From NCBI GenBank assembly GCA_963730935.1, contig CAVSTP010000004.1:1344001-1408000 (forward strand): a stretch of 64,000 nt of DNA, written 5' to 3'. Each line of letters begins with the position of its first letter. Within the stretch, counting starts at the first letter, position 1. The notes under the pieces are model-generated. The model was not told the DNA's origin. It worked only from the letters and a program-made list of their open reading frames with translations, and did not search any database. The translations under genes and the position numbers were made by a program. Shown in pieces: positions 37,981 to 63,759 of the stretch. The DNA is from an uncultured Nitrospiraceae bacterium. GTDB lineage: Bacteria > Nitrospirota > Nitrospiria > Nitrospirales > Nitrospiraceae.

Positions 37981-38212
37981 GGATGGTGGGCCTGTTGCTC
38001 CGACGACGGGTAAAGCCGCACGCCCTGTCGTTGCTTGGCTCCGCAACTTGTTCCGTCCATGGTCTTCGTCCGAACGGAACTTCAACAATGCTCGCCATCG
38101 CCGCCTGGGAAAAGGGAGCGTCTTGGCGCCGCCCAGGGTTGGGCGGGTGAGAATGCAACCCCAGCGACAGGGCCATGCGACCCGTCGCAAGTCGCTTCCA
38201 GCCCCACCATCC
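37981..38212 (+). repeat. Structured intergenic repeat, copy A
   Basis: GGATGGTGGGCCTG/CAGCCCCACCATCC closing stem; core shared with 49445, 50227, 63450. Confidence 0.85.
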
Positions 38213-38350
38213 TCCCACTCATGGGGAACAAGCAGAGAGACCGGTCCCACGATGTGCCATGCACTATCGCTTCCAATCCGCTATCCTCACTCTAATGGCT
38301 GGTACCCAGCGGGAAATTGAGCATGCAGGGATCAGATGTAGAAATTGAGG

Positions 38351-38389
38351 AAATTAAAAGAGCCCGCCTCCCTTTCGGAAAGCGGGCTC
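38351..38389 (-). terminator. Intrinsic terminator downstream of the SIMPL gene
   Basis: GAGCCCGC/GCGGGCTC stem followed by TTTTAATTT on the minus strand. Confidence 0.7.
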
Positions 38390-38511
38390 CTCTCTTGGAT
38401 TTTGGCAATGTTTCCATTGCCGTTTTCTAAGATGACCTCATCGTATCAAACAACTCAAAAAGGGGGCCTGGGAAAATGACCAGAACGTCCTCGAAAAACC
38501 TCCAGCAGCCC

Positions 38512-39261
38512 TTACTCTTGGCCGATCTCATAGACCAGGGTCACCGTCGCCTCGACCTTGATTTCGCCGGAGAAGACCGGCGCCTCGCCACCGCCGCCTT
38601 CCATAGCCATCATTGACCGGGTCATCCTGGGCACGGGGTGCACAACGTGGCTTTCCTCGGTCGCGTTGAGCAGACGAATCAGCCTCACCTTCAAGGCCTC
38701 ACTGAGCGCCGACGCCTTCTCGCGGGCTTTTGCCGCCGCCTGTTTGAGAACCCCGAGCTTCGCCTGCTGCTCGTCACGAAGCGCCCAATGCAGGCCCTGG
38801 AACTGATTCGCACCCGCGGCGAGCGATTCTTCGATCGCCGGACCGACCTTGTCCAGATTGCGTAGTTCGACCGCTATGGTATTGCTGATGATGTAGCCGA
38901 TGATCTCCGGCGGCTCGGCCAGGCCTTCGGAGCGTTTGCGCGGCGGCCTGTATTGAGGTGAAACCGCAAATGACGCGGTCTGGATACGTTCATTCTCGAT
39001 CTGCAAGGCACGTAGGCGCTCCACGACCTTGTTCATTACTAGTCGGTTTTGCCGCTGAGCTTCCCCGACGGTCTTGCCCGTCGTCTCCATCCCCAGGGTC
39101 ACGAATGCGGTATCAGGCGCGAGCGAGATCTGAGCGTGGCCCGTGACCGTGATCGCCGACCTTTCTGGAACATCCTCGTGTGCCAGCGCCGCCCACGGCA
39201 CGACCAGCCACGTCATGAGCAACAAGACTATCATGATGGACCTCCCCTTCTGCGCTGCCAT
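38512..39261 (-). CDS. SIMPL (DUF541/YggE-like) periplasmic protein
   Basis: Signal peptide; ITVTG...PDTA, IQT..F.VSPQY, GAN, GEIKVEATV. Confidence 0.9.
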   Translation of the reverse strand: MAAQKGRSIMIVLLLMTWLVVPWAALAHEDVPERSAITVTGHAQISLAPDTAFVTLGMETTGKTVGEAQRQNRLVMNKVVERLRALQIENERIQTASFAVSPQYRPPRKRSEGLAEPPEIIGYIISNTIAVELRNLDKVGPAIEESLAAGANQFQGLHWALRDEQQAKLGVLKQAAAKAREKASALSEALKVRLIRLLNATEESHVVHPVPRMTRSMMAMEGGGGEAPVFSGEIKVEATVTLVYEIGQE

Positions 39262-39271
39262 GAAACCTCGT

Positions 39272-39769
39272 TTAACACTTCATGCGCGTCCATCGCCGGC
39301 TCAAAACCAGCATGGTCACGCCCGTGATGCCGCCGAAGAGCCAGGTTAAGAGCCGGAAAGGAAACCAGAAGAAGGCGATCGCGGCCTCGATCGTTGGAAA
39401 TCGCAGGCCTTCAACCATGTATTGAAGACCATCGCTTTGAAAGATGGGATATAGCACCATGGCAACCAGTCCGGCAACGTACCCGGCAAGAACCGAGTAC
39501 ATGATGGTCGAGAGGATGGGAAGCTGCCCGTGATGGCGACGGCTCGTCCACCAGAGCAGCAAGAGCGCCAGCGTTGTGACAAAGACGAAGAGATAAGGCA
39601 GAAAGTACGCGCCCCGCATCCAAAAGCGAATCCAGCGAACCATGAATGTCACAAGGGCGATGCCATAGGCCAGGAGGAGACTCGTCGCCACTAGTAAAAG
39701 GCGTTTCCCCGGTCCCAGCCGAAAGAGAATGGTCTCGGAAGCGTGACGTCTGTGTGACTCATGGCTCAT
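39272..39769 (-). CDS. Hypothetical 4-TM membrane protein
   Basis: Hydrophobic segments; longer ORF-track start overlaps DUF72. Confidence 0.65.
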   Translation of the reverse strand: MSHESHRRHASETILFRLGPGKRLLLVATSLLLAYGIALVTFMVRWIRFWMRGAYFLPYLFVFVTTLALLLLWWTSRRHHGQLPILSTIMYSVLAGYVAGLVAMVLYPIFQSDGLQYMVEGLRFPTIEAAIAFFWFPFRLLTWLFGGITGVTMLVLSRRWTRMKC

Positions 39770-39856
39770 CAGCAACCTACTGTATAAGGAGGATGCAGAG
39801 AGGTTGCAATGTCGCTGAGCATGTTCCTGACGCCGGCCGTCAGAGTACAATGTCGC

Positions 39857-40768
39857 ATGGCATTGTCTTCCTTGGTGCGATTTGGCACCTCCACCTGGAC
39901 GTACGAAGGTTGGAAGGGAGAGGTCTATAAACAGACCTATCCGAAAGGCCGGTTCAAGCAGGACTGCCTCGCGGAATACGCACGCTACGAGCACGAAGGG
40001 GCACCGCTCTTTCGCACGGTCGGCTTCGACTTCAGCTTCTACGGTCCCCCAAGTACGAAACAGCTCGAGCATTATGCGTCATTGCTTCCGGAAGGATTTG
40101 AAGCCTGCGCCAAGGTGTGGGAAGAAATCACGATTCCTGTGTTTCCTCCCGGGCTCCGCTATCGCAGCAAGGCGGGACCAAATCCGCACTTTTTGGACGC
40201 GGACTACTTTCTCGAGCAGGTGCTGCCGCCCTTCGAGCAGGCATTTGGACCCTATACGGGACCTTTCATCTTCGAATTTCAACGGACGGGGCTCGAGCCG
40301 GCGACGTTTCTGCCTAAGCTCGAGGCGTTCCTTGCCCGCCTGCCGACGAAATTCAAGTATGCCATCGAGGTCAGAAATCCCGCCGTCCTCGGCTCCGAGT
40401 ATCGCCGCGTGCTCGAAGCGCACGGCGTGAGTCACGTTTACAACCATCTCTACGGAATGCCAACGATCGCCCAGCAGCACGAAAAGCTTGAGCGGCAGTT
40501 CACGGCCTCCTTCATCCTCCTGCGCCTGCTCACGCCCCGCGACAAGAAGTATCACGAGGCCGTGAAGGCTTATGAGCCATACGACAAACTGGTCCGACCA
40601 CTCCCCGAGATGCGTGAAGCTGCGGTCCGGCTCGTGACGCAGGCGGTGGAAGAACGCCGGCGCGCATATGCTCTCGTGAACAATCGCAGCGAAGGCCACG
40701 CGCCCGGCACGGTGAAAGCCATTCACGACATGTTAGTGCACCACGAGACCGTCCCTGACGCCATGTGA
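39857..40768 (+). CDS. DUF72-family protein
   Basis: RFGTSTWTYEGW, FSFYGPP, YAIEVRN, VNNRSEGHAP; alternative start 39809. Confidence 0.9.
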   Translation: MALSSLVRFGTSTWTYEGWKGEVYKQTYPKGRFKQDCLAEYARYEHEGAPLFRTVGFDFSFYGPPSTKQLEHYASLLPEGFEACAKVWEEITIPVFPPGLRYRSKAGPNPHFLDADYFLEQVLPPFEQAFGPYTGPFIFEFQRTGLEPATFLPKLEAFLARLPTKFKYAIEVRNPAVLGSEYRRVLEAHGVSHVYNHLYGMPTIAQQHEKLERQFTASFILLRLLTPRDKKYHEAVKAYEPYDKLVRPLPEMREAAVRLVTQAVEERRRAYALVNNRSEGHAPGTVKAIHDMLVHHETVPDAM

Positions 40769-40873
40769 GCAGATTGCACTGGGGAATTCCCGGGCGCCAG
40801 ACATCTTGTTCCAGGCCAAGGGACAATCGCTTCTTCCGCCGGCACTACTCACCATCCATCGCGTACTTAGAAT

Positions 40874-40889
40874 AGGCACCTCGTTTGCA
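40874..40889 (+). promoter_or_regulatory. Sigma54-type promoter
   Basis: AGGCAC-CTCGT-TTGCA about 130 nt before ATG 41019. Confidence 0.55.
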
Positions 40890-41018
40890 CGATCTCCTGT
40901 TGAGGTTACCGCACCTTTGTCATCCGACCAAGAGGCCGCACCATGGCGGGTGCCTCACTCCTCGTTGGGATCCACGCCTCGATTGCCGAGGCAAACAGCA
41001 TACAAGGAGATACGCACG

Positions 41019-41237
41019 ATGGAAGAGTTCATCGAAACAGTCTTTGACAATCGATTTTTCCAACTGCCTTTCTTGGAAGCTTTGCCTTATGTCGCCGGGG
41101 TCTTGTTAGTCGGCGCGATCATCGTAGGCCTTACGCGACGCGCGCTGGGCATCGCCTCGCCGCCGCCAGTCGCGACGACGTACGAAGAACGGCCATCGTA
41201 TGAAGAAGAGTGGAGGGAATGGAAAAAAGCAGCGTAG
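41019..41237 (+). CDS. Single-TM microprotein ending KKAA
   Basis: AAGGAG RBS; one TM; 72 aa. Confidence 0.7.
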   Translation: MEEFIETVFDNRFFQLPFLEALPYVAGVLLVGAIIVGLTRRALGIASPPPVATTYEERPSYEEEWREWKKAA

Positions 41238-41274
41238 TGGGATGGTGCGCCCTCGCTCCGGCGAAGGGCGCTGC

Positions 41275-45059: not shown

Positions 45060-45061
45060 AC

Positions 45062-49269: not shown

Positions 49270-49444
49270 AACAAGTCCTCCCTCTCCTCTCGTGGAAATC
49301 GGATGAGCGACCAAACTGGTTCTACTATGTGCTGCTTTCGACATGAGACGACCTGGTGAAAACCCTGGTTGGAAGGCTGGGATATGGCCCTGGCTGTGAC
49401 GACAGTGCTCGCCCAACGCGCACCACCGGAAAGGGAGATCGAAA

Positions 49445-49630
49445 GCGGATGGTCGTTCCTGCTCAAGCGAGGGGAAACCGCGTGGCCCAGTTGCTGGCTT
49501 GGCTGCGCAACTTGGTCCGTCCTGGACTCGTCCGAACGGACCTTCGAAACAGTGCGTCTCGCCATAGCCAAAGGCGACCGCAGTGCCAGGGCCCTGCACC
49601 CCTCGCAAGTCGCAGGTCACGACGATCCGC
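49445..49630 (+). repeat. Structured intergenic repeat, copy B (short form)
   Basis: GCGGATGGTCGT/ACGACGATCCGC closing stem; shared core. Confidence 0.85.
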
Positions 49631-49650
49631 CTTATGCGGGGCATGGAAAC

Positions 49651-49825
49651 GAGGAGGGGCGGTGCTTTTGCGCAGAGGGTGCGTCCCGGGTAATCGATTG
49701 CGAAGCAATCGGTGGGTCGGTGGGGGAAAATGGACCGCCGAGGGCGGGAGGGTGAGAAGATCGGGCGCAGTTGGAGGCCAATCAGCCCCCACCCTTAAAA
49801 GAATACGAGCGAGCTTGGAAGGACC
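49651..49825 (+). repeat. Repeat piece B' (internal module plus 3' tail)
   Basis: GCGTCCCGGGTA..CGATTGC-GAA-GCAATCGGTGGGTCGGTGGG and CGAGCGAGCTTGGAAGGACC shared with copies C/D. Confidence 0.8.
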
Positions 49826-49913
49826 AGGAGGGCCATGCTTGTTACGGCCTGGGAAGAGGCCTACAATTTGGCGCAAACACTTCGTTGTACACATCTCACC
49901 CAGGAGGGCCGCT

Positions 49914-50222
49914 ATGCAGACCTACGTCAGTCTCGTGAAGTTCACGCAGCATGGTCTCCAAACCATGAAGGATAAAGGCATCGAGAGAGCTGAAATGGTG
50001 AAGCAGAACGCCAAGTCGCTCGGCGGTAAGCTCGTTCAGGCCTACTACTGCCTCGGCGAATACGACGTCGTGGCTATCTGGGAATTCCCCGACAACAAGA
50101 CCGCCATGAAAGCCGCCGTACTCAACGCCTCGCTCGGGCACATTCAGATCACCACCCTACCCGCGGTCAACCGCGAGGAATGGAAAGGGTTGTTGCAGCA
50201 GTCACTCGGCAAAAAGAGGTAG
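49914..50222 (+). CDS. GYD-domain protein
   Basis: YVSLVKFTQHG, GGKL..YYCLGEYDVV, GHIQITTLPA; AGGAGG RBS. Confidence 0.9.
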   Translation: MQTYVSLVKFTQHGLQTMKDKGIERAEMVKQNAKSLGGKLVQAYYCLGEYDVVAIWEFPDNKTAMKAAVLNASLGHIQITTLPAVNREEWKGLLQQSLGKKR

Positions 50223-50226
50223 GACA

Positions 50227-50508
50227 TGACGTCCGTATCCCTCCCCTGTTCCAGCGCGGGTGAAACTGAATGGTCCTGTCGTCGTTTGGCTCCGCAGCCT
50301 GCTCCGTCCTGGACTTCGTCCGAACGGACCTTCGAACAATGCTCGCCATCGCCGCCTGGGAAAAGGGCGCGTCCCGGGTAAACGATTGCCAAGCAATCGG
50401 TGGGTCGGTGGGTGAAAGGATTGCCCAGGGTGGGGAGAGTGAGAATGCGACCACACCGACAGGATCATGCATCCCTCGCAAGTCTCAGCGAGGAGCATAT
50501 CGACGTCA
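50227..50508 (+). repeat. Structured intergenic repeat, copy C (long form)
   Basis: TGACGTC.../...GACGTCA closing stem; long near-identical stretches with copy D. Confidence 0.9.
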
Positions 50509-50564: not shown

Positions 50565-51245
50565 GTGAAGAGGAGACTTAACTGGATCTTCTTCGCAGGT
50601 CTTGCACTGTCGACGCTTGTCCTGCTGTGGGGTGGCCCAGCGCCGGCGCAGGAGGGGCATCAGCATGAGCGGATGCCCAACGTCTTGGAGTACCTCGATC
50701 GCCTCGATCGTCCCGAGCGCGATCAGGACCAGAAACCGGCGCAGGTCATCGAGGCCTTGGCACTCAAACCGGGCATGTACGTCGCCGACCTTGGCGCCGG
50801 TTCCGGATACTTTACCCGGCGGTTCGTGGAAGCGGTCGGCGACACGGGCAAAGTGTACGTGATCGACATCGAACCCGAGGCGTTGAAATATGTAGAAGAG
50901 AGCCTCATCCACATGCACCGGTCATTTGAGGCGGAATTCATCCTGGCCAGGCCGGACAACCCCAAGATTCCATTCGAATCGGTCGAACTGATCTTCGTCT
51001 GCGATACTTACCACCACCTCGCAGACCGCACGGACTATTTTCGCAACGTCAAATCATCCCTCAAGCCTGGCGGCCACATCGCGATCATCGATTTCTATCA
51101 CGATGAGCGTTCAGGCGAGTTGGGCTTTCCAAAGCGGCATCTGGTGCCAAGGGAGAAGGTCATAGAGGAAATGACGGAGGCCGGCTATCGGCTGGCGAAG
51201 GAGCACACCTTCCTGCCCAAACAATATTTCCTAGAATTCGAATAA
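50565..51245 (+). CDS. Class I SAM-dependent methyltransferase with signal peptide
   Basis: VADLGAGSGYF, YHH, LKPGG; N-terminal APA-Q signal. Confidence 0.85.
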   Translation: MKRRLNWIFFAGLALSTLVLLWGGPAPAQEGHQHERMPNVLEYLDRLDRPERDQDQKPAQVIEALALKPGMYVADLGAGSGYFTRRFVEAVGDTGKVYVIDIEPEALKYVEESLIHMHRSFEAEFILARPDNPKIPFESVELIFVCDTYHHLADRTDYFRNVKSSLKPGGHIAIIDFYHDERSGELGFPKRHLVPREKVIEEMTEAGYRLAKEHTFLPKQYFLEFE

Positions 51246-51285
51246 GGGTAGCCTGACTGATAATGGACTATGGCTTCGGGGCTCC

Positions 51286-51338
51286 GGCCACCATCCGCCT
51301 TCTGCTGAGGAGGAAAAACGAGCAATCTCGGAACGACC
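51286..51338 (+). repeat. Degenerate 3' remnant (G) of the repeat family
   Basis: GGCCACCATCCGCC then ACGAGCAATCTCGGAACGACC, resembling the end and tail of copy D. Confidence 0.5.
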
Positions 51339-51341
51339 ACT

Positions 51342-51749
51342 TTATTGTGCGGAGGGGGCCACTTTGCTCAGGATCGATCTCACCTTGAGCATGCCTGAGT
51401 CACTGGAGGTCCGTTGGAAGTGTGCCTCGACGGTGACGACATCACGGTCGCGAAGCGAGTTCCTTGCCCCGGAACAGTTGGCTTTGTATACAGCATCGAT
51501 AGAGCCCGTTTCATCCTCCAGAGTGAACAACTGAAAACACTTGTTCATCCCACGTCGGATCTTGTGGTTGTACACGGTTCCCGTGACACGCACGACCTGA
51601 GACTGATAGGAGTCAGGATTCTCGAGCAATGAGGCAACATCCGAAACGGTGCCGGCCCATGTAAGCGGAGCGACGAGGCTGAGAGCCAGGACCATGACGA
51701 TGGATGATCGAAAATACACCCTCATACTGAAAATATAGCACCTGTTCAT
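51342..51749 (-). CDS. Exported OB-fold protein
   Basis: P.SYQSQVVRVTGTV, FTLEDETG; resembles 33112..33537. Confidence 0.7.
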   Translation of the reverse strand: MNRCYIFSMRVYFRSSIVMVLALSLVAPLTWAGTVSDVASLLENPDSYQSQVVRVTGTVYNHKIRRGMNKCFQLFTLEDETGSIDAVYKANCSGARNSLRDRDVVTVEAHFQRTSSDSGMLKVRSILSKVAPSAQ

Positions 51750-53011
51750 AACTTGGCAATCAGCAGGGCTGTCCCGTACAGTAAAAGTCCTACAAAACCG
51801 CCCACAACCGCCCCATTGATGCGGATAAACTGCAGATCCGTCCCGACCTCCCGCTCGATCGTGTCCACCATATGAACGACGGACCAGTCACGGACCGTGG
51901 CGGTGACCAGCTCCCCGATCCGGTCGCCATGCCTTGTGGCCAGATCGATCACAAAATCTTGTAATCCGCGCTGCAACAGCGACACGAATTCTGGATCCGT
52001 TCTTAGCGTCTCGCCGAGCCCGGCCAAGGCCTCGCCGAGATAGGCGCGGATCTCCGACTCCTCGTGCCTCAGATCCGCCAGCAGCCACTGTTTCAAACTG
52101 TCCCAGGAATCGTTGATGAATTGCAGCAAGACCTCATAGCCCAACAGCTTCTCCTTCATGGACGCTTCCCGCTGCAAGGCCTGTTCGGAATGCATCAGCC
52201 ATTGCGCCGCCGCCTCGAGACGCTCGATCAACCGCTGCCTGAATGGATCATTGGCATCATCTTGCATATCCCTTAACAGCGAGAGAAACCAGTCGACGAG
52301 CTTCTCAGCTACCTTCTCATCAAGCCGGACGAGACTGAGCAGCCGGGACCAGGGCAGTTTGTCGGCGATGAGACTGGACAACTGACCTCGATGGGCTTCC
52401 ACCGACTCGCTCACGAGGGTCAGGGCGTCGTTCAGCAACCGGTCTCGTTGAGTGCTTTGCAGAAAACCGGACAGCATCTGTCCGATCACCGGCGAGAGGT
52501 GGAGTCCGCGCAGCGTGTTGGTCGCGAGATGCCGGATGAACTGCTGCATCGCGCGATCTTCCGACGCCGCGACCATGCGGCCCAGGAGGCGTGCCGCTTC
52601 CTGAGTCAGCGCCTGCCTCCGGCTCGGATCGAGTAGCACCGTTGTCAACTCGTCCGGAATGCGCCACGACTCGATCAGCTTCCCGATGGCGTCAGGGGTC
52701 AGAAGCTGGCGCTGCGTCAGGCTGCCGAGTCGGGAGGCGATACGCTCCTTGTTTCGGGGAATGATCTGCGTGTGTGGAATCGGCAGACCGAGCGGCCGCC
52801 GAAACAGCGCCGTGACGGCATACCAGTCGGCGAGCGCACCGACCATGGCCGCCTCCGCAAAGGCCCGGACCCACCCTAGCGCCGGATACTTCTGCTCCCA
52901 GACCAGCGAAGCCACAAACAGGACGGCCATGCATACTAGCAATCCTGTCGCGATCACACGGGCTCGCAGGTACTGACGTTCAAAAGCATCACGCGGGATA
53001 TCGCTGATCAT
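51746..53011 (-). CDS. DUF445-family membrane-anchored protein
   Basis: EAAMVGALADWYAVTALFR.PLGLPIPHT; DLQFIRINGAVVGG. Confidence 0.9.
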   Translation of the reverse strand: MISDIPRDAFERQYLRARVIATGLLVCMAVLFVASLVWEQKYPALGWVRAFAEAAMVGALADWYAVTALFRRPLGLPIPHTQIIPRNKERIASRLGSLTQRQLLTPDAIGKLIESWRIPDELTTVLLDPSRRQALTQEAARLLGRMVAASEDRAMQQFIRHLATNTLRGLHLSPVIGQMLSGFLQSTQRDRLLNDALTLVSESVEAHRGQLSSLIADKLPWSRLLSLVRLDEKVAEKLVDWFLSLLRDMQDDANDPFRQRLIERLEAAAQWLMHSEQALQREASMKEKLLGYEVLLQFINDSWDSLKQWLLADLRHEESEIRAYLGEALAGLGETLRTDPEFVSLLQRGLQDFVIDLATRHGDRIGELVTATVRDWSVVHMVDTIEREVGTDLQFIRINGAVVGGFVGLLLYGTALLIAKL

Positions 53012-53201
53012 GAAACACCTCTCTCCTGTTTTCGCATAAGGTGAATGTTCTCCCTTGTGTCCCTCTGGAGCCTCATGTAAGTTACGCCCGCTGTTGAACG
53101 TAGAGCGTCTGTTGTAGCAGTCTTTCCATGTCCCGCCGATCGACCCCCTCAGATTCTGATCATTCGACGTTGAGTGTTGGTTCGCCCGCGAGGAACGCTA
53201 G

Positions 53202-53597
53202 ATGATCAGCACATTCGATTTGACGCTACTGGGTAGCCTGGTCTCCGCCGGCGGGCTCGTGTTTCTCAGGCATGGTACATGGCCCTACCCGAGCTGGTCT
53301 TTACTTGGAATCGGCAAGCGGCCGTTCGAACTCTCGGCGGAAAGCAGCCACCAACATGCACGGTCGACGGCGCTCGCCGGCGTCCGATGGCTGACGGTCG
53401 GCGTCCTGACTCTCTTCATCGCCTACGTCCGCGGCGCGGAGGAAGGCTACCTGTTCAGTCCATGGAGCGACGTCATGTTCCACCTCATCTTCGTGTCTAC
53501 TTGCTGGGCCACAACGGCGTTTCGCATGAAACACGCAGCCGAACGGGCGAGCGCGGTCGTCCTCACCCATACCTCGCCCAGCCAAGCCAGCAGCTGA
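53202..53597 (+). CDS. Hypothetical membrane protein
   Basis: Three hydrophobic segments; GAGG RBS. Confidence 0.6.
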   Translation: MISTFDLTLLGSLVSAGGLVFLRHGTWPYPSWSLLGIGKRPFELSAESSHQHARSTALAGVRWLTVGVLTLFIAYVRGAEEGYLFSPWSDVMFHLIFVSTCWATTAFRMKHAAERASAVVLTHTSPSQASS

Positions 53598-53619
53598 CAG
53601 CAGACGGCAGATCGAGGCG

Positions 53620-54765
53620 TCACGACGGCGACTTCGTCAACACCCGCTGAAATTCCTGAATCGCTGTGACGACTCCCAGCTGGTTCTGTTGTACCCGGCT
53701 GCCAAGCATGAATACGATGTCCTGACCTAATACTGTGGTCAGCTCGCCAATCCGATCAACTCCTATTCTGCCGCCGACCGCCGGCATCATGGGCACGACA
53801 TGCGCCCAGGGCTGCCGACAGTTCACCGCCACGGAGATGCAGTCTTCCTTCGACATGGTATAGCCGGCATCAAAGCTGGGATAAATGGCCATGTCCGCCC
53901 CGGCCAATCGAGGCAGCAGCGCATACGCCACGGCCGGGGCAAGCCCTCCCCCTTCTCGAGACACGCTGGTCCCGAGAAAGGTCGGATGACTTGCAATAGG
54001 AACCGCCAGCGCCTCATCGACTGCGAGCGCACGCAGCCCATCGAAGCCGGTCACCCCTGGAGCGACCAACAGACCAGTCGCTCCCAACCGCTTCGCTTCG
54101 CCGGCACGCTGCCGCATCGAATCCCACGCTCCGCTTACATGCGCAAAATAAAGACAGGGCCGCCCTCTCTGCACACTCGCGTCGGAAATCGCTTCGGCAC
54201 AACGAGCGACTCGCTCGTTGAATGGACAGAAGGGTTGATCGAGTAGGGCTTGATCGTCCTTGATCAGATCGGCACCACCAAGCACGAACTGCGCCCCGAG
54301 CTCCGCCAATTTCTTCGGCGAACGCCCCAAGGGCTTGAGGACCGCACAGACCAGCGGCCGATTCGACACGCCGACGGCCTGTCGAAGGCCGGCCAAACCG
54401 TACCGAGGCCCGCGCCAAGACGAGAGAAGCCCGTGTGTCAGCGAAAAAGACAGTAGCCGTACATCCGAGCGCAGACTGCTCGTTCCGAATAACAGATTCA
54501 GGAGATCACTAAGCTCCTTCCCGACGAGGTCGCCTGCATATCGAATCGTGGCTTCGTGGCGACCTGCGGTAAGCGGCCGAAGCTGTTCGAGACGACCGAA
54601 AATCCTGGCGCAAAGCGGAGGCGCAAGGAGATCTGCGTCCGCTTCGATGGTTTGATCAAGACAAATGCGCTCGGCCCGCGCTCGAGCTTCGGTCTCCGGC
54701 CCCGGCACTTCATAGACTGCTGTCAGGAACTCTGTTCCCAACGGATCACGTTCTTCAATATTCAT
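53620..54765 (-). CDS. RuBisCO-like protein (form IV)
   Basis: GPRYGLAGLR, RPLVCAVLKP, GGADLIKDDQ, SHP, RLAGAD; lacks the KPK and HR motifs of carboxylating RuBisCO. Confidence 0.9.
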   Translation of the reverse strand: MNIEERDPLGTEFLTAVYEVPGPETEARARAERICLDQTIEADADLLAPPLCARIFGRLEQLRPLTAGRHEATIRYAGDLVGKELSDLLNLLFGTSSLRSDVRLLSFSLTHGLLSSWRGPRYGLAGLRQAVGVSNRPLVCAVLKPLGRSPKKLAELGAQFVLGGADLIKDDQALLDQPFCPFNERVARCAEAISDASVQRGRPCLYFAHVSGAWDSMRQRAGEAKRLGATGLLVAPGVTGFDGLRALAVDEALAVPIASHPTFLGTSVSREGGGLAPAVAYALLPRLAGADMAIYPSFDAGYTMSKEDCISVAVNCRQPWAHVVPMMPAVGGRIGVDRIGELTTVLGQDIVFMLGSRVQQNQLGVVTAIQEFQRVLTKSPS

Positions 54766-54847
54766 GGAAGAACCCTTCTCGTCCTCTCAACCCTATAGCA
54801 GGAATCAAATGCTCTCTCCAAGCTGGCTCACTCTTCCTCCCCTGCAG

Positions 54848-55084
54848 GGTGGATGGTGGAGCTAGCTGCGACTTGGGAGGAGGCGGTTTCCTCACTTGCG
54901 ATTTGCGTGAAGGCTCGGGCACCACACTTGTTGATCAGATGCGACCAGCCGAGGGCTGGCGACGTCGATGTTCGCTGTTCCGTTCATGCGCAGCAACGAA
55001 CGGAACGAGTTTCGGCGTCGAGCAGATGAGCAACTTAGTGTGGTCGAGTCGAAGCGCCTGTGCAGGTGGAACACCGTCTCCTCC
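54848..55084 (-). repeat. Divergent inverted copy E of the structured repeat
   Basis: Minus strand reads AACTCGTTCCGT...GAACGGAAC..AACA..TCGCCA...CAAGTCGC..CCACCATCCACC. Confidence 0.65.
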
Positions 55085-55124
55085 TCGCTTCCCGCCTCTC
55101 TTTCAGTTATCATGCGCCACCTCA

Positions 55125-57131
55125 ATGTTGACGCACGACGACCAGCCCGTCGTCCCAGCCGCCGTCACGCTTCCTGAAATCACCGTCAAAGCGGTCGTCC
55201 TGTCCGTGATTCTGGCGGCAGTTCTGGCTGCCGCCAACGCTTACCTGGGTCTCTTCGCCGGCATGACCGTGTCCGCGTCCATTCCGGCCGCGGTCGCCTC
55301 GATGGCGATTCTTCGCCTCTTCAAACGGTCCAACATTCTCGAAAACAACATCATCCAGACGGCTGCCTCCTCAGGCGAAGCGCTGGCCGCCGGCGTGATC
55401 TTCACGATTCCAGCGTTACTGCTCGTCGGCTATTGGTCCGCCTTCGACTACTGGCAGACCGCTTCGATTGCGACGGTCGGCGGCTTGCTGGGCGTGCTCT
55501 TCACGATTCCGTTACGGCGCGCGCTGATTGTCACGGCGCGCCTGAGATTCCCCGAAGGCGTGGCAACCGCCGAAGTCCTCAAGGTCGCGGCCCCCGCTGA
55601 AACTGAGGTCGTCGAGCGAATCCACGCGGCGCCAACTCAAGCGGCCGGCGATTTCAGGACGCTACTTTCCGCCGCCCTCTTGGGCGGTGCGGTGAAGTTC
55701 GGCGAGAGCGGATTGCGCCTCTGGGCGGAATCCCTCGAAGGCGCAGCCAACATCAGCCGCACTGTACTCTATGCCGGGCTCAACCTCTCGCCTGCCCTGC
55801 TCGCCGTCGGATTCATCATCGGCTTGAATACGGCTGTCGTGGTCTTCCTCGGCGGCCTCATCGGATGGGTGATGCTGATGCCGGTCTATGGGCTCATCGA
55901 CGGCCTGCCGCCGGGTAAGACCGGCCTGGCCGCGGCGATGACGATCTGGAGCGGCCAGATCCGCTACGTCGGCATCGGCGCCATGCTCACCGGTGGCCTT
56001 TGGACGTTGACGAAACTCCGCGAGCCGGTGTGGAAAAGTCTCGAAACGCTGCGTGACAGCTATCGCGCAGCTGGATCATCCACCCCAGCCGCCATACCGA
56101 GGACGGAACAGGATGCGCCGCTTCCCTGGATCGTCGTTCCGTTTGTCTTGGCGCTGCTCCCGATGGCCTGGATCTATACGACGGTCGTCAGCAGCGTGCC
56201 CATCGGCCTCATGATGACGGCCATCATGGCGCTTGCGGCCTTCCTCTTCTCTTCGGTCGCCGCCTACATGGCCGGGCTGGTGGGCAGCTCCAGCAATCCG
56301 GTGTCCGGCGTGACCATTGCGACCATTATGGTCGCCTCGCTCCTTCTCGTGCTGTTCATGGGCGCCGGGCATCCGGCCGGGCCGGCGGCCACGCTCGTGA
56401 TTGGCGCGGTTGTCTGCTGCGCTGCGGCCATGGGAGGCGACAATCTGCAGGATCTCAAGACGGGTCACTTGGTCGGGGCAACGCCCTGGAAGCAGCAAAT
56501 CATGCAAGTGGTCGGCGTGCTGACCGGTGCGGTCGTCCTTGTCCCCGTACTGTCTCTGTTGCAAGCCAAGTACGGGATCGGCGAGCCCACGGCCGGCCAT
56601 CTGCATCCCTTGAGCGCCCCCCAGGCCACGTTGATGGCGAGCCTCACGCGCAGCGTTTTCGGCGCAGGCCTGCCTTGGTCGCTCGTCGGCTTGGGGATGC
56701 TGATCGGCATCCTCGTGATTCTCGCGGATCGTCGTCTGGAAGCACGCGGCAGCGAATTCCGACTGCCCGTTCTCGGTGTGGCGCTCGGTATCTACCTGCC
56801 GCTCAAGCTATCGGCGACGATTTTCTTGGGCGGCATGATCGCCGCCCTGGCCAACAGAGCGGCAGCAAGAAGCGACGAGCCGCCGCGGCGCGGTCTGCTG
56901 TTCGCGGCAGGACTGATCACTGGGGAAGCGCTCATGGGTATCGTATTGGCGATCCCCATCGCACTCGGGGCCTTCTGGCCTGGCCTCAGTCCCGATCCGT
57001 TCCTGCTGTTCGAGGCGCCTCCGCTCGGCGGCTGGCCCGGCATTGTGATCGTGGCGGTGGTGGGGTGGCTGCTCTACGTGACAGCCAGGGAACCTTCCAG
57101 GAGGACAAAACGCGGTGTGGGTGTAGGATGA
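55125..57131 (+). CDS. OPT-family oligopeptide transporter
   Basis: NAYLGL.AGMTVSASIPAAV, ENNIIQT, FPEG, SSNPVSG, LQDLKTG, APQATLM. Confidence 0.95.
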   Translation: MLTHDDQPVVPAAVTLPEITVKAVVLSVILAAVLAAANAYLGLFAGMTVSASIPAAVASMAILRLFKRSNILENNIIQTAASSGEALAAGVIFTIPALLLVGYWSAFDYWQTASIATVGGLLGVLFTIPLRRALIVTARLRFPEGVATAEVLKVAAPAETEVVERIHAAPTQAAGDFRTLLSAALLGGAVKFGESGLRLWAESLEGAANISRTVLYAGLNLSPALLAVGFIIGLNTAVVVFLGGLIGWVMLMPVYGLIDGLPPGKTGLAAAMTIWSGQIRYVGIGAMLTGGLWTLTKLREPVWKSLETLRDSYRAAGSSTPAAIPRTEQDAPLPWIVVPFVLALLPMAWIYTTVVSSVPIGLMMTAIMALAAFLFSSVAAYMAGLVGSSSNPVSGVTIATIMVASLLLVLFMGAGHPAGPAATLVIGAVVCCAAAMGGDNLQDLKTGHLVGATPWKQQIMQVVGVLTGAVVLVPVLSLLQAKYGIGEPTAGHLHPLSAPQATLMASLTRSVFGAGLPWSLVGLGMLIGILVILADRRLEARGSEFRLPVLGVALGIYLPLKLSATIFLGGMIAALANRAAARSDEPPRRGLLFAAGLITGEALMGIVLAIPIALGAFWPGLSPDPFLLFEAPPLGGWPGIVIVAVVGWLLYVTAREPSRRTKRGVGVG

Positions 57132-57164
57132 AGGAAGAGTGATCTTTCCATTGTGAGGTGGCTT

Positions 57165-57344
57165 ATGTTCGACACTCTGCTCGGCAGCCTTATCATCCTT
57201 TCCTCCACCCTGGCGATTATTGTCGTCTTGGCCCTCTTCCTGACGGCGCTGCTCAGGTGGATGTTCCTGACAGATGAGGAGGCGGCTGAAACGACAACGG
57301 TATATGAGCCGTCAACGGACTATCCGTTACGGAAGGCAGCCTAA
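57165..57344 (+). CDS. Single-TM microprotein ending RKAA
   Basis: GAGGTG RBS; one long TM; 59 aa. Confidence 0.65.
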   Translation: MFDTLLGSLIILSSTLAIIVVLALFLTALLRWMFLTDEEAAETTTVYEPSTDYPLRKAA

Positions 57345-57476
57345 CTTCGTCGCGACATATCGATTCCAGTCCAATTTTCTGGACTGCTCCGAGTAGGACC
57401 TTTTCCTAAGGAAGCCCCTAGCGTGACAGGTTCGGACGGAGAACTGTGCAGACGAAGCCTGGGAAACAGAAAGAGG

Positions 57477-57869
57477 TCAGACCGGCGCGAATTGGGGATC
57501 CTGAACGTTGAGGATCTCGAAGGCTTCTTCCGCCGTTCGCACGACGCGCAGGTTTGGACGACTGTCCGCCCCCTCCAACTCGAACAACCGCCCCATCCCG
57601 AAGAGATCAGGTGTCGGCGCGATGAAGATGACCGGCCGGCTCGGATCCGGCATAATGGGCTTGGTGCGGGCGAGAGCGCGCATCGTTTGCGGAGAGAAGG
57701 CCACCGCCGTCGCCTCGGAAAAGTCGGTGATGCCGGAGAGCGGGTCGAACCGGGCAACGTTCTCTTGGCCGAAGCGATACATGTTCCTGAGATCGTCATC
57801 CGTCACCCGTCCTAAGAAACGGGCGCGCAGAATCCGATTGGTTGTATCGAAGTCGATCAGGTAGGGCAT
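57477..57869 (-). CDS. STAS/SpoIIAA-like small protein
   Basis: G.VTDDD, ITDFS, FGMGRLFE, VVRTAEEA pattern. Confidence 0.7.
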   Translation of the reverse strand: MPYLIDFDTTNRILRARFLGRVTDDDLRNMYRFGQENVARFDPLSGITDFSEATAVAFSPQTMRALARTKPIMPDPSRPVIFIAPTPDLFGMGRLFELEGADSRPNLRVVRTAEEAFEILNVQDPQFAPV

Positions 57870-58027
57870 CCAGCTGCTTAATTCCTAGTTCCCAGTATGA
57901 GAAGCTTTCGACACAATAGCTGACATCGAATGTAGAATAACACGTTGTGCGTGGATTACTGAAGATATATAGAACTAAGGTAATGTCCTACACGAAGTGG
58001 TGTTGATCACGAGGCAACGAGGAACGT

Positions 58028-58594
58028 ATGGCAGTTGAATCGGTCATGCTCCCCCTGGGAACCACCGCTCCGCCGTTTTTTTTGCCCGACGTCGTGAGCG
58101 GGCAGGTCTATTCGCTCGACTCGTTTCATGGCAAGGACGCCTTGCTGGTCATGTTCATCTGCCGCCATTGTCCGTACGTCAAGCACGTCGAGCAGGAACT
58201 CGCCAAGATCGGCAAGGACTATCAGGAGAAAAAGCTTGGCATCATCGGCATCAGCAGCAATGATCCGGCGACCCATCCGGACGACGCCCCGCACCGGCTC
58301 AAAGAGATGGCCAAACAACTCGACTTTCGTTTTCCATTCTGCTTCGACGAGACGCAAGAGGTCGCCAAGGCCTACAAGGCCGGCTGCACGCCTGACTTTT
58401 ACCTGTTTGATGTCCAGCGGCGATTGGTCTATCGCGGGCAGCTCGACGAGAGCCGTCCCGGCAACAACAAACCGGTGACCGGCCGCGATTTGCGTGGCGC
58501 CATCGACAATGTGCTCGCCGGGAAACCGGTCGATTCCGACCAAAAACCCAGCATCGGCTGCTCTATCAAGTGGAAAGAGGGGCGCGCGGGCTGA
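58028..58594 (+). CDS. Thioredoxin/AhpC-TSA family protein
   Basis: FICRHCPYV, SSND, CTPDFYLFD, SIGCSIKWK. Confidence 0.9.
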   Translation: MAVESVMLPLGTTAPPFFLPDVVSGQVYSLDSFHGKDALLVMFICRHCPYVKHVEQELAKIGKDYQEKKLGIIGISSNDPATHPDDAPHRLKEMAKQLDFRFPFCFDETQEVAKAYKAGCTPDFYLFDVQRRLVYRGQLDESRPGNNKPVTGRDLRGAIDNVLAGKPVDSDQKPSIGCSIKWKEGRAG

Positions 58595-58727
58595 TGATCT
58601 CCCGTGCTCGCCCAACGCGCACACCAGACCAATCGTATTGTTTAGAAAGTCGCTGCTCGTCGAAGCGCGCAGTAGGAGATCATCCAACCCACGCCAAGAA
58701 GAGTGAGTGAGCGAGCAGGCTTGGAAG
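58593..58727 (+). repeat. Related repeat element F (different interior, similar frame and tail)
   Basis: Perfect GATGATCTCC/GGAGATCATC stem; GTGCTCGCCCAACGCGCAC identical at 49405; GAGCGAGC..CTTGGAAG tail. Confidence 0.65.
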
Positions 58728-58755
58728 TTTTATTTATAAGGGCGTGCTCGCTAGG

Positions 58756-59142: not shown

Positions 59143-59242
59143 TGGTGTATAGGTTCAAGCTTAGCGAAGCGCAGGCCATGCAGAGCCAGGGTTTATCGAT
59201 CTTGACCAGTGAAGGTGCTAAGCGTACAGTGATGGTCATTCG

Positions 59243-59328
59243 GGCCGCCTTAAGTCTGCGAGGTGGTGGCCATGATCCTCCGTGGAGCACCAATCCATCG
59301 TGATGGACATGGCGAGTGCGGCCTCCTC
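59243..59328. repeat. 86-nt structured direct repeat, copy 1
   Basis: 78/86 identical to 59782..59867. Confidence 0.9.
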
Positions 59329-59681: not shown

Positions 59682-59781
59682 GACGGAACGACAGGGCAGA
59701 TCGGCGGGCGGGCCCAAGTGGTAACACGTTCTGACGTTCAATAGATTGCGGGAAGCCCAATCGTAGCGTACCTACGGTTCT

Positions 59782-59867
59782 GGCCGCCTCGAGTCTAAGA
59801 GGTGGTGGCCATGATCCTCCGTGGAGCAGCGATCCATCGTGATGGACATGGCCAGTGCGGTCTCCTC
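59782..59867. repeat. 86-nt structured direct repeat, copy 2
   Basis: 78/86 identical to 59243..59328. Confidence 0.9.
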
Positions 59868-60001
59868 CCCACGGAAACGTTCTTCCGCAGTGTAGCTGAG
59901 GTAGCCCGTCCGCACCTCGCCGAGATCGCTTCGATCACACCTCATTCCCGCGTACAACCGAATATTTCCTGCCCTGCAGGAACACAAGAAAGGAGGGGCT
60001 T

Positions 60002-60379: not shown

Positions 60380-60426
60380 CATCATTCCGTTCAAGAGAAT
60401 GATGCGACGACACTGGAGGTGTTCGT

Positions 60427-60942
60427 ATGAAACGATATCGCGGAAAAGCACTGGTCGGTGTGGCTGTGATGTTCGTATTACTGCTCGCGCCGGTGGGGGC
60501 GGCACAATCGGAGGACATTGTGCTTAATTCGCATTATGGCTTCAGCGGGGTGATCACCAAGATCGAGTCCGGGATGTTGTTCGTCAAGACAGATTCGAGC
60601 TTGCAGCCGAGACCGATCAGCCCCAATAAAGCCGATCGAGTGGGGCTGTACAATGCGAAAGTCGGCGACCCGGTCAACATGCTGGTGGATTCAGGCAATG
60701 TCCTGATCGATGCCTCTGCGACCGATCAGTCTCCCGATCATGTGTTCGTCGTCGGCACAGTCCGCTATTCCGATCCATTCTGGCACGAAATTCAGCTCTC
60801 GACTCCGGAGGGAACGACTACTTATGAGGTGGACTCGTTGGCAGGCAACAAGCTGTCTACCCTTCCGGACGGTGCACCGGTCACGCTGGAACTGGACGCG
60901 GATAACGTGATGATCGACATCCAACGCGGCCAGTCACGCTGA
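60427..60942 (+). CDS. Exported protein with two small beta-barrel-like repeats
   Basis: GGAGGT RBS; signal peptide; two G.PV...D..NV.ID repeats. Confidence 0.75.
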   Translation: MKRYRGKALVGVAVMFVLLLAPVGAAQSEDIVLNSHYGFSGVITKIESGMLFVKTDSSLQPRPISPNKADRVGLYNAKVGDPVNMLVDSGNVLIDASATDQSPDHVFVVGTVRYSDPFWHEIQLSTPEGTTTYEVDSLAGNKLSTLPDGAPVTLELDADNVMIDIQRGQSR

Positions 60943-60965
60943 ATGTCGGCTGACGCGACAGTGGC

Positions 60966-61039
60966 TTGACTTGAGCGGAACGCGTCCGTACGATTTTCTT
61001 GAATCGGTGTTCGCCGGCATCCGGATGCCGGCGAACACC
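60966..61039 (+). promoter_or_regulatory. Sigma70-type promoter followed by a perfect 34-bp palindrome
   Basis: TTGACT-17 nt-TACGAT; GGTGTTCGCCGGCATCC|GGATGCCGGCGAACACC (61006-61039). Confidence 0.65.
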
Positions 61040-61073
61040 ATCAAGCACGTCTCTTCACTCAGGGGACGATCGC

Positions 61074-61847
61074 ATGGTGAGCCGTCTACGCTGGGTCGCC
61101 GGAGTTGTATTCCTGGCTGCCATCCAGGGGGAAGCGGCGACCACGGAGCGGGCTCGACCCGAGGACGGGATTGCGTTCCAGACCATCATCGATCTGGAAC
61201 AGAGCGCCCGTCTCATCGCCATCCTGCTGGACTCCGGGCGCTCCGTCATCAACGAAAACCAACCTCTGTTCGATGATCCGGCCAAAGCCGACAAAGGCTT
61301 TACGCCCGACCTATTCGAGCGACAACTCGCACGCATGTTTCGCGACCGTTCGGGACTCGACCTTGCTGAGTTAGACTCGGCTCGGGTTCCGCCCGCGGCC
61401 AAGAAATGGCTCAAGGACCTGCTGACCGTGAGCAAGCAGGTCGTGAAGGACGCTCAACCAGAAATTAACCAGCCGGCCGCCCGCTCCAAGCTGATCCCAG
61501 CGGTGTTTGGCTCGCGCGTAGCCGGGCGTTTCACGGAGCGGACCGGTGTCCAGCTGAAGCAAACAGCCCTGGCTCCCCGAAATCCTGCCAATGCCCCCGA
61601 TGCGGTCGAACGATCGGCGCTGGAAATGTTTGCGGCTTCCGATTACCCGCGCGAAAAGACGATCAGTGAAGCCACGGCCAAAACCGGCATGGTGAGGCTC
61701 ATATATCCGTTGTACGTGACCAGGCAATGTCTCGATTGCCATGGTGAACCGAAGGGGACACTGGACAAGACGGGCTATCCCCGGGAAGGATTGCGGCTCG
61801 GACAGAATGCCGGCGCCATCAGCGTGGCGATCCGTATGTCACCATGA
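61074..61847 (+). CDS. Tll0287-like (DUF3365) monoheme c protein
   Basis: PRNPANAPD..E, CLDCHG, G..AGAISV; signal peptide. Confidence 0.85.
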   Translation: MVSRLRWVAGVVFLAAIQGEAATTERARPEDGIAFQTIIDLEQSARLIAILLDSGRSVINENQPLFDDPAKADKGFTPDLFERQLARMFRDRSGLDLAELDSARVPPAAKKWLKDLLTVSKQVVKDAQPEINQPAARSKLIPAVFGSRVAGRFTERTGVQLKQTALAPRNPANAPDAVERSALEMFAASDYPREKTISEATAKTGMVRLIYPLYVTRQCLDCHGEPKGTLDKTGYPREGLRLGQNAGAISVAIRMSP

Positions 61848-63448
61848 AACAGACGACACTCGTCATCGTCGCCGTACTAGTCTGGACAGGCGCTGCCTGG
61901 GCCGCTGACCGTCCGGCTCCTCCGACCGAACGGCCGTCAGGGACCGGCGTCATCGTCCATTCCGATGGGTATGTGCTCACCGCGCATCATGTCATTGCCA
62001 ACGCGCGCCGGGTAGTCGTCGTGACGCCGGGCGAAGTGCGAACCTCGGCGATCGTGGTCAGCACCGATCCGGAACACGATCTGGCCCTTCTCAAGGCAGA
62101 GACAGTCGGCCTCTCCGAAACCTCGATCGCTCATGCAGGAACCGTCAGGCTGGATCAGGAAGTCATCGCCGTCGGGTTTCCGTTCGGGTTGCGGGAAGTG
62201 TCCGTGACACGAGGGCGGATCGCAGCCGTGCGGACCAAGGGCGTGCAGCGCGTCTTTCAAGTCGATGCGGCCGTCAATCCCGGAAACAGCGGGGGACCTT
62301 TGTATAACGCGGACGGGGAACTGATTGGGATTCTGACGACCAAATTTTCTCATCCCTCCGGCATTGTTCCGGAAGGAATGGCCTTTGCCGTTCCGGTCAG
62401 TTATGCCACGCCTCTCCTCGCCAACATTGAGGGATTCGACTTCAGCGTGATCGGCAAAAGCCGCAACGGGAAGAAGGCCAAAAAAGGCAAGGCGGCCAGC
62501 GACGACCGGCTTGCGGGCATGCTGCGCACGACCGTCAGAATTGAGACGGCCAGAGGCGCGGAAGCTTCCCCTCCTCCAGCCACACCCGCTCCGGCTGAAT
62601 CCATCAAACGACAGGATCCCGTGCCCCCCATCGCTCAGGGACAAGGGGAAACCCGGAATCCAACCTCTCGCGCGCCGGACACTGATGTCATCCAACAAGT
62701 AAACGAACAGCTGCGGAAGACTCAACAGGAACAGCTCCTGGCGCTGACACAGCAGGGTGTCCCCGTCCCCGACGGGATGGTGTTGATCCCAGCCGGGGAA
62801 TTCTGGATGGGCGCGGAGGACGGCTTGCCCGACATGCGTCCCATGCATCGCGTCTACATGAGCACCTACTGGCTCGACCAGCATGAAGTGACCAACCGGC
62901 AATACCGGCAATGCATGGAAAGCGGAGGATGCGCTCCGCCAAAAGATCACTCAGCGTACGACGATGAAACGCGAGCCGATCATCCCGTCACGAATGTGAC
63001 ATGGACGCAGGCCAGAAATTATTGCCGCTGGCGTGGAAGGCGCCTGCCCACGGAAGCCGAGTGGGAAAAAGCGGCTCGCGGGATCGATGCGCGGCTCTAC
63101 CCATGGGGAAATTCCGACGACATGGTCAAGACCCGATCACGTCTCAGCGAATCGGCCAAGAACGGGACGGTGCCGGTGGGGAGCATCGAGTTCGCGCGCT
63201 CGCCGTATGGGGTTGCGGATCTCGTCATGAATGCCTCCGAGTGGGTCAACGACTGGTATGCAGAAGATTTTTATCGGTCCTCGCCAAGCCGGGATCCGCA
63301 GGGCCCCGCGCGTGGTGGATTCAAGGTGCTGCGCGGGGGTGAACCCAGCGACCGTCCGCTCGAGCTTCGGGTCAGCTATCGAGGATGGGATGACATGAGC
63401 TATTGGGGACCGGCGGTCGGCTTCCGCTGCGCACAAGACGGATCGTAG
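61844..63448 (+). CDS. Exported trypsin-like serine protease fused to an FGE-sulfatase (SUMF1-like) domain
   Basis: TAHHV, HDLAL, GNSGGP triad; FWMG, HEVTN, RLPTEAEWEKAARG, GFRCA. Confidence 0.9.
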   Translation: MKQTTLVIVAVLVWTGAAWAADRPAPPTERPSGTGVIVHSDGYVLTAHHVIANARRVVVVTPGEVRTSAIVVSTDPEHDLALLKAETVGLSETSIAHAGTVRLDQEVIAVGFPFGLREVSVTRGRIAAVRTKGVQRVFQVDAAVNPGNSGGPLYNADGELIGILTTKFSHPSGIVPEGMAFAVPVSYATPLLANIEGFDFSVIGKSRNGKKAKKGKAASDDRLAGMLRTTVRIETARGAEASPPPATPAPAESIKRQDPVPPIAQGQGETRNPTSRAPDTDVIQQVNEQLRKTQQEQLLALTQQGVPVPDGMVLIPAGEFWMGAEDGLPDMRPMHRVYMSTYWLDQHEVTNRQYRQCMESGGCAPPKDHSAYDDETRADHPVTNVTWTQARNYCRWRGRRLPTEAEWEKAARGIDARLYPWGNSDDMVKTRSRLSESAKNGTVPVGSIEFARSPYGVADLVMNASEWVNDWYAEDFYRSSPSRDPQGPARGGFKVLRGGEPSDRPLELRVSYRGWDDMSYWGPAVGFRCAQDGS

Positions 63449-63449
63449 A

Positions 63450-63759
63450 GGTGGATGACGGCCTTCTGCTTCAGCGACAGGTAAAACCGCAGTGTGCATG
63501 GCTCTGTAACTTGGTCCGTCCCGGACTTCGTCCGAGCTGACATTTTAACAGTGCGTCTCGCCATCGCCATCTGGGAAAAGGGCGCGTCCCGGGTACACGA
63601 TTGCAAAGCAATCGGTGGGTCGGTGGGTGAAAAGGATTGCCCAGGGTTGGGCGGGTGAGAATGTCGACCGCAGCGACAGGCCCTGCACCCCGCGCAAGTC
63701 ACACTGAGGCCACCATCCACCCCGATTGGGAAGAGTAAGCGAGCGAGCTTGGATGGACC
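63450..63759 (+). repeat. Structured intergenic repeat, copy D (long form plus 3' tail)
   Basis: GGTGGATGACGGCCTT/GAGGCCACCATCCACC closing stem (to 63721); tail GCGAGCGAGCTTGGATGGACC. Confidence 0.9.

Follow-up and report, generated by a model that had tools for sequence, protein, structure and literature searches.

A Nitrospiraceae-wide family of branched hairpin repeats that may move as folded single-stranded DNA

Dispersed through the genomes of the Nitrospiraceae is a family of structured repeats, several copies of which lie in a stretch of 64,000 nucleotides (nt) from an uncultured member of that lineage (NCBI assembly GCA_963730935.1, here G000; contig CAVSTP010000004.1, here C4, positions 1344001-1408000; henceforth the window). 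The family is real as a Nitrospiraceae-wide repeat and apparently undescribed: a literature search that left subscription papers mostly outside found no description of such a Nitrospira repeat, and the supplements of motif-discovery studies could list it. We favor, with a probability of roughly 55%, the reading that it is a non-autonomous DNA element, a branched hairpin of ~200 nt, which some enzyme would move or rewrite while it is folded as single-stranded DNA. The original prediction, made from the window alone, had offered a choice between a non-coding RNA and a mobile element. Its observation is confirmed and its interpretation partly supported: empty, filled and swapped orthologous sites lend support to the mobile branch, while the branch of a sense 3'-untranslated-region (3'-UTR) RNA is weakened.

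Copies are 190-280 nt long and the aligned ones share a multibranched fold. The basic unit, M1, is a rod of ~195 nt. Its closing stem, P1, is variable and fixed bulges separate stems P2 and P3; the rest is made up of a junction that is invariant and of the hairpins P4 and P5. A module M2 lies inside the P5 loop and a further module M3 inside M2, while a second element, M4, either surrounds M1 or breaks into it. An E subtype keeps the junction and has different stems. M1, E and M4 alike can end in the same tail, GAGCRAGCTTGGARGGANCATT, which follows a purine-rich linker. The terminal arms pair within a copy and differ among copies, and conserved terminal inverted repeats (TIRs) are absent; conservation thus runs opposite to that of a MITE (a miniature transposable element with inverted repeats), with an invariant core and drifting ends.

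In G000 itself, 243 BLAST matches merge to 69 loci, profile searches give 70, and the loci cluster at C4 1.38-1.57 Mb, C4 775-795 kb and contig C3 754-798 kb. By BLAST the family is present in 17 of 24 genomes of the same genus and in none of 16 from other families. A covariance model, seeded with window copy B and 42 copies from other genomes (43 aligned), is positive in 100/141 Nitrospiraceae genomes and 34/39 genera (three of the positives being unpublished genomes) and in 0/88 genomes of 17 other Nitrospirota families. Scanning 185,579 species genomes by pattern gave 58, 63 and 89 loci, of which 57/58, 62/63 and, among the matches listed of the 89, 80/80 are labelled Nitrospira, Nitrospiraceae, Nitrospirales or Nitrospirota. 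We set aside two matches beyond this group: L051 is a chance pattern match, and L151, on a contig labelled Actinomycetota, has the GYD, methyltransferase and AI-2E neighborhood seen around copies B and C, together with M4 elements, and is probably mis-binned Nitrospira. BLAST against phages and plasmids gave no match; among viral contigs there was one pattern match, unconfirmed by the model, and two further patterns gave none.

One line of evidence that the fold is maintained is covariation. Both sides change in 48 of the 73 pairs; such cells number 205, where shuffled data give 78±7 (as many in 0/500 shuffles), and the paired fraction drops to 31-42% in slid controls. Since the structure was derived from the same alignment, we added an alignment-free test of the closing arms: a copy's own arms pair with each other better than with the mean of other copies' arms in 54/60 cases with DNA and 55/60 with RNA parameters (0/20,000 permutations). 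The orthologous copies C, of the window, and L059 have wholly different P1 stems, each of them self-complementary. This covariation, together with the strand asymmetry, supports selection for a single-stranded fold, as originally proposed, or its maintenance.

That asymmetry places the better-folding form on the minus strand, the reverse complement of the sequence quoted in the original prediction; the structure described there is real and its strand has to be exchanged. Of 63 full-length matches (one copy was entered both ways), 60 fold better as the minus strand, with RNA and with DNA parameters alike, as do 36 (RNA) or 38 (DNA) of 39 mostly distant copies. Where the two folds share a pair (70 pairs), G·T occurs 145 times on the minus strand against 83 on the plus, and G·A 88 times against 38. 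Furthermore, minus-strand cGNAg triloops close 30/59 P4 and 14/60 P5 hairpins. GNA is described as the sole triloop giving an extra-stable DNA mini-hairpin, its RNA counterparts being much less stable (PMC13037366, available part). These DNA-type loops, along with the better folding of the antisense strand, argue against a 3'-UTR RNA.

The members of the family in the window, with the features that adjoin them, are as follows.

37938..37965, minus strand: sigma-70-like promoter of a divergent gene; copy A's closing-stem end is 16 nt away; 10/12 consensus matches, 0.5 expected in shuffles
37981..38212, plus strand: copy A, an M1 rod whose P5 loop contains M2, tail absent; 128 bits
49406..49432, plus strand: left arm of an M4 shell interrupted by copy B (motif d1 at C4:1393406)
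49445..49630, plus strand: copy B, plain M1 rod; 163 bits; minus-strand DNA z -5.3
49650..49826, plus strand: B', modules M2 and M3, M4 right arm and conserved tail at 49807-49823
49914..50222, plus strand: GYD-domain gene (PF08734, E 1.7e-25), between B/B' and C, which are in direct orientation
50227..50508, plus strand: copy C, M1+M2+M3, beginning 5 nt past the GYD stop codon; 136 bits
51246..51340, plus strand: remnant of a 3' closing arm, then a purine linker and a degenerate tail, directly behind the stop codon of a methyltransferase gene
54848..55084, minus strand: copy E, of a divergent subtype and in inverse orientation to A-D; 59 bits
58581..58738, plus strand: uninterrupted M4 shell with tail, overlapping the stop codon of an AhpC/TSA gene; 159 bits (with this copy itself in the seed)
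63450..63721, plus strand: copy D, M1+M2+M3, beginning 1 nt past a stop codon; 101 bits
63722..63763, plus strand: purine-rich linker and conserved tail behind D

The M1 covariance model returns exactly five matches in the window, in falling order of score B, C, A and D on the plus strand and E on the minus strand, so that E is an inverted, divergent family member, as had been proposed. Copies A-D and their closing arms are present in the sequence as first described; the G/T exchange reported for an inner stem reappears in the alignment, where the column pair 86/115 is GC in 25 copies and UA in eight; the CGATTGC hairpin occurs in C, D and B' and in neither A nor B; and the tail follows both B' (49807) and D (63741). 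A third, degenerate tail lies at 51320, matched by a pattern written to admit it, for which 4/100 shuffles gave three matches. Two further pieces, named originally with no coordinates, probably correspond to the remnant of 51246-51340 and to the M4 copy of 58581-58738. The hairpin of B', once taken as free-standing, is not so: B and B' lie inside the M4 shell that opens at 49406. Plus-strand RNA folding gives z-scores of -4.4 (A), -5.3 (B), -1.6 (C) and -0.9 (D), and that of D becomes -2.4 when it is folded as minus-strand DNA. For copy E the fold energies (-121.9 vs -97.9 kcal/mol) once more favor the family's antisense strand.

By our own gene calls in G000 (hand counts over 50 oriented loci, with no null), a stop codon on the same strand stands no more than 60 nt from the P1 end at 26/50 loci, and an opposite-strand stop is that near the tail end at only ~4/50; a same-strand gene lies upstream at 33/50, the remaining 17 facing the start of a divergent gene. 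Among distant copies, 24/39 begin between -16 and +40 nt from a stop. The adjacency to promoters is drawn from the scan at copy A and from -35-like hexamers seen by eye; judged by its sequence, the stretch at 37938..37965 is promoter-like and would be a host feature that copy A abuts, and a scan at a second locus of the divergent class found none. Whereas the original prediction confined the repeats to accessory DNA, most copies follow core genes such as glnE and secA; the same sites, after these and two other genes, are reused across distant genera, and orientations are mixed along the chromosome.

These positions bear on the rival view that the selected form is an RNA: the minus strand might be transcribed as an antisense RNA, or a retro-mobilized RNA might give complementary DNA that starts at the tail. 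In its favor, RNA parameters too prefer the minus strand, whose tandem G·A internal loops and invariant junction bring kink-turns and T-loops to mind, and the arrays described below, in which A/T-rich fillers lead from a tail to a truncated copy, bring to mind template jumping by a reverse transcriptase (RT). Against it stand the cGNAg loops of DNA type and the 17/50 loci that lack a same-strand upstream gene for a sense transcript. The folded strand is antisense to the gene upstream, and such a gene is missing at a third of the loci, so that the fit to a 3'-UTR RNA is poor. RTs are likewise scarce, as detailed below, and Rfam has nothing on the element loci at the gathering threshold, with only chance matches (E 0.19 or worse) at loose thresholds. 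We consider the RNA reading unlikely. RNA-run depth over B was higher in two of four runs; such depth pools other copies and is strandless, and we do not use it as evidence. A 6S RNA is discounted because the genome's 6S gene lies elsewhere, and a decayed protein family because the initial ATG of copy D reaches a stop after eight codons and the aligned copies carry frame-breaking indels.

Comparison of orthologous sites reveals turnover. Among the pairs listed, the sites in G000 corresponding to L017, L030, L034, L038 and L049 are empty, while L029 and L053 hold M1 where G000 has the E subtype. The orthologue of copy D in L019 is without M2 and M3, and the site of copy A is occupied by other members in L068 and in a related genome, G047. 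The alignment between G000 and G047 (flanks 86-97% identical) breaks at 51 places; at 37 of them, as counted by hand in regions picked for holding elements, there is a motif from this family or from a sister family of hairpins. Of the two signs sought at orthologous loci, empty sites were thus found; a target duplication was visible in none of the empty/filled pairs, where flanks have diverged, target DNA is often lost and 2 bp could escape notice.

Variable partners meet at the fixed tail end. Within 30 nt after the tail, family sequence follows in 65 of 215 cases, as against 1/215 random control windows; 49 of these 65 are 5'-truncated, at many different points, and in arrays short A/T-rich fillers stand between a tail and the truncated copy. 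Joints seen in DNA runs were discarded as new junctions, since they fall inside repeats and are explained by other copies. At one locus (L267) gene ends enter the stack: glnE is followed by an element and tail, a diverged in-frame glnE 3' end, an element and tail, another diverged glnE 3' end, and again an element and tail. Elements also surround small genes. Near-identical direct copies bracket a RelE+HTH pair (95%, L282) and a DUF4160+DUF2442 pair (97%, L281); at L286 direct copies that are 100% identical, possibly through an assembly artefact, surround a ParE gene with a small upstream open reading frame (ORF); and at L283 glnE ends, elements, Fic and DUF2442 genes alternate. These four cases were chosen by eye. 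Near element arrays we also noticed genes of defence-like or toxin-antitoxin type, namely the start of a DUF262-like ORF (L267:1950-2400, our own reading), an HsdM fragment (L219:13196-13750) and a BrnA antitoxin (L043:3218-3550).

Such brackets invite the interpretation that the element is a single-strand site of the attC type, on which a dedicated recombinase acts in the folded antisense strand to capture and shuffle small toxin-antitoxin cassettes at gene ends. The direct copies around toxin-antitoxin genes, the alternation at L283, and B and C around the GYD gene speak for it, as do the adjacency to stop codons and a structure kept while sequence drifts; the bottom, antisense strand of attC sites is also the more stable, through G·T pairs and purine skew (PMC5027507, available part). 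Yet the attC core RYYYAAC/GTTRRRY occurs at the ends of none of the 43 aligned copies, the best integron-integrase score in G000 (TIGR02249) is 86 bits against a cut-off of 265, and the mixed orientations, the predominance of copies behind core genes and variable junctions with no fixed crossover suit it badly. We therefore regard it as improbable.

From copy number, covariation, polarity, turnover and a fixed tail end with variable partners, all of them observed, we infer the steps of the favored single-stranded DNA route. The minus strand would be released, starting from the fixed tail end, and fold into the rod. An enzyme would read the invariant junction and the G·A-rich loops, so that the stems would need only to pair. 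The tail end would then be joined to the target at a variable point, with the deletion of some target DNA, and the other end be resolved by homology with an older copy, a neighboring gene end or a promoter. The outcome would be mosaics, stacks separated by tails, duplicated gene ends and the occasional capture of small cargo genes, and selection would retain only those insertions that spare the stop codon or promoter.

Several observations weigh against this route. The default covariation term of RNAalifold is only -0.33 and P1 is missed, a weak result because the alignment of P1 is ragged; the copies are related, so that counts over them are not independent; the cGNAg loops of module M3 lie on the plus strand (15/49); and computation has difficulty telling motifs of single-stranded DNA from those of RNA (PMC5737381, available part). 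Neither an intermediate nor a transposition event was seen. Duplication of a gene end at a tail is rare, with one clear locus (L267) and 2/215 tails. Of 80 glnE loci fetched, 72 have a readable end; the element lies within 120 nt of the stop in 7/72, and 4/72 (L319, L335, L347 and L354) duplicate the glnE 3' end around a Fic gene where the hairpin element is absent. The order at these four is glnE, a DUF4172+Fic gene and the duplicate 3' end, which is near-identical in L354 and has diverged in the other three. As the duplication also occurs without the element, it is not element-specific; one-sided homologous integration would be a general process there, and the glnE 3' end is, as read from sequence, an integration hot spot.

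To the same side belongs the lack of a partner enzyme in our searches. G000 has no IS110, RT, TnpB, DDE_Tnp_1, DDE_Tnp_1_6 or integron integrase above cut-off; its Y2 (IS91) search was empty, and the positive control of that search gave no signal either. RAYT, searched in 41 relatives, is present in just three of the 11 element-rich genomes (those with at least 19 BLAST matches), and RT in only two of the 11; over 33 genomes of the genus, IS91 is found in one, IS110 in five and RT in nine. The element model finds nothing near 29 RAYT, IS91, IS110 or RT loci (best E 0.066), among which are 15 Nitrospiraceae RAYT loci; the RT loci, made up of group II introns and other RTs, have no element in their vicinity. 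A RAYT, IS110 or RT gene flanked by the motif, the partner first envisaged, was thus found at none of them. The single RAYT-type Y1 transposase gene of G000 (L001:1200-1950) has its own, different flanks in the form of inverted GGGGACAGGCTAC-type repeats; solo repeats of the GGGGACAGGCTAC type were seen directly behind element tails at C4:1464290 and C4:1506540. Pfam searches of 28 window proteins and of 148 of 371 neighboring ORF clusters linked no family to the element, the 148 containing one IS3-type rve ORF, and a TnpA, TnpB or Y2 gene between element ends was seen in none of the loci covered by our genus-level and local searches.

This lack also suits a passive passenger with no dedicated enzyme: template-switch correction and gene conversion would keep old palindromic repeats self-complementary, and ordinary one-sided homologous integration of DNA that comes from related strains would reshuffle them. 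The reuse of sites across genera and the glnE duplications around Fic genes agree with this, and competent bacteria are described as integrating DNA by homology at one end with an illegitimate joint at the other (PMC3240628, available part). However, a symmetric correction leaves the strand bias in G·T and G·A, the invariant unpaired junction and the cGNAg loops unexplained, and with them the clustering of junctions at the tail end and the spread to ~50 unrelated loci per genome. We give a passive origin a small chance.

How tag-less hairpin repeats spread in bacteria with no neighboring transposase is an open question, for which this family offers a testable case: its active strand is defined, its core invariant and one end fixed, and site histories are available from many orthologous loci. 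Among the intergenic sites of a key group of nitrifiers, the nitrite-oxidizing Nitrospira, those that it marks are the most variable, and at them small toxin-antitoxin cargo collects and short-read contigs often end. At its most far-reaching, the family might represent a new single-strand DNA recombination system of the Nitrospiraceae, in which a branched attC-like site with a fixed tail is served by an unrecognized enzyme, capturing toxin-antitoxin and Fic cassettes and swapping gene 3' ends between lineages with neither an integron integrase nor a known transposase; we advance this as an unlikely speculation.

Other repeats share the neighborhoods of the element. A separate family of TIR-bounded hairpin MITEs (G000:C4 ~775713-776076, 782407-782644 and 793194-793364; L282:8066-8182; ~46 intergenic loci in the cluster) takes up M2/M3 modules and is sometimes found at M1's sites. 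A hairpin repeat family F (G000:C3:599040-599232 and ~35 loci) has M2 in common and sometimes the same tail behind it, and a further multi-copy intergenic palindrome family occupies ~43 loci in the cluster (G000:C4:800684-802050; L001:170-270 and 2700-2810). Another structured repeat of ~200 nt replaces or adjoins M1 at several sites in G000 and G047 (C4:55758-58447, compared with L203; 661009-661408; 663947-664181; 1560796-1561299). Within the window, a RuBisCO-large-chain-like gene (53620-54765, minus strand; PF00016, E 6e-20) directly adjoins copy E. A block of 6.8 kb (51238-58027), whose left edge is the tail-bearing remnant at 51246-51340, is absent from the orthologous position of L059. 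A 90-nt direct repeat, 90% identical (59239-59328 and 59778-59867, 539 nt apart), lies in a long non-coding stretch and is unrelated to the hairpin family.

The statement that the repeat is no known riboswitch, ribozyme, attC or insertion sequence held in all tests run, and several known systems share features with it. The REP, BIME and REPIN repeats mobilized by TnpA-REP (RAYT) are, in the available part of their description, likewise intergenic, multi-copy and mosaic, with imperfect palindromes and functional bulges; they are non-autonomous, as the Nitrospira element probably is, and also persist for long in a lineage; their substrate is strand-specific and single-stranded, to which the strand asymmetry of the Nitrospira copies may correspond (PMC8266576). 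They differ in being palindromes of 20-50 nt behind a conserved tetranucleotide, for instance GTAG (PMC8266576, available part), whereas the Nitrospira unit is far longer and branched, and a conserved tag of the GTAG type is absent from the stem foot in the 43 aligned copies. Moreover, a cognate RAYT is flanked by its repeat, while the Nitrospira element was seen around none of the RAYT loci covered and does not co-occur with RAYT. The sites called attC also lie right behind stop codons, conserve structure over sequence and sometimes surround small cassette-like genes (PMC5027507, available part). Directly comparable are the hand-counted 26/50 positions behind stop codons and the more stable bottom strand; the multibranched fold, the lack of IntI, the mixed orientations, the variable junctions and the position mostly beside core genes set the Nitrospira element apart.

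The MITEs ERIC, Correia and RUP resemble it in size, long stem-loop, position at gene 3' ends, empty and filled sites, and internal inserts (PMC3184786, available part); in the Nitrospira family, by contrast, conservation is lowest in the terminal arms and the core is invariant, the tail lies outside the hairpin, and neither of the two DDE transposase families searched for is present in G000. IS200/IS605 and IS91/ISCR elements, with their non-autonomous derivatives, are comparably polar and strand-specific, and their active strand bears a conserved motif 5' of a hairpin (PMC8266576, available part); they make no target duplication, and at the diverged Nitrospira sites none was visible. The fixed tail end may be likened to cleavage at a fixed short site as in IS200/IS605, a comparison that is only suggestive. 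One-ended transfer in IS91 bears a likeness as well. The DUF1874 motif also covaries, is more complex than a hairpin and was proposed as a possible recombination site in single-stranded DNA; it alternates with ORFs in cassette arrays (PMC5737381, available part), whereas the Nitrospira family is dispersed and has no Rfam match to it. The family thus would work like REP/REPIN and attC, as strand-specific folded DNA, and resembles the ERIC-type MITEs in size and position, yet it departs from each of them in some defining features.

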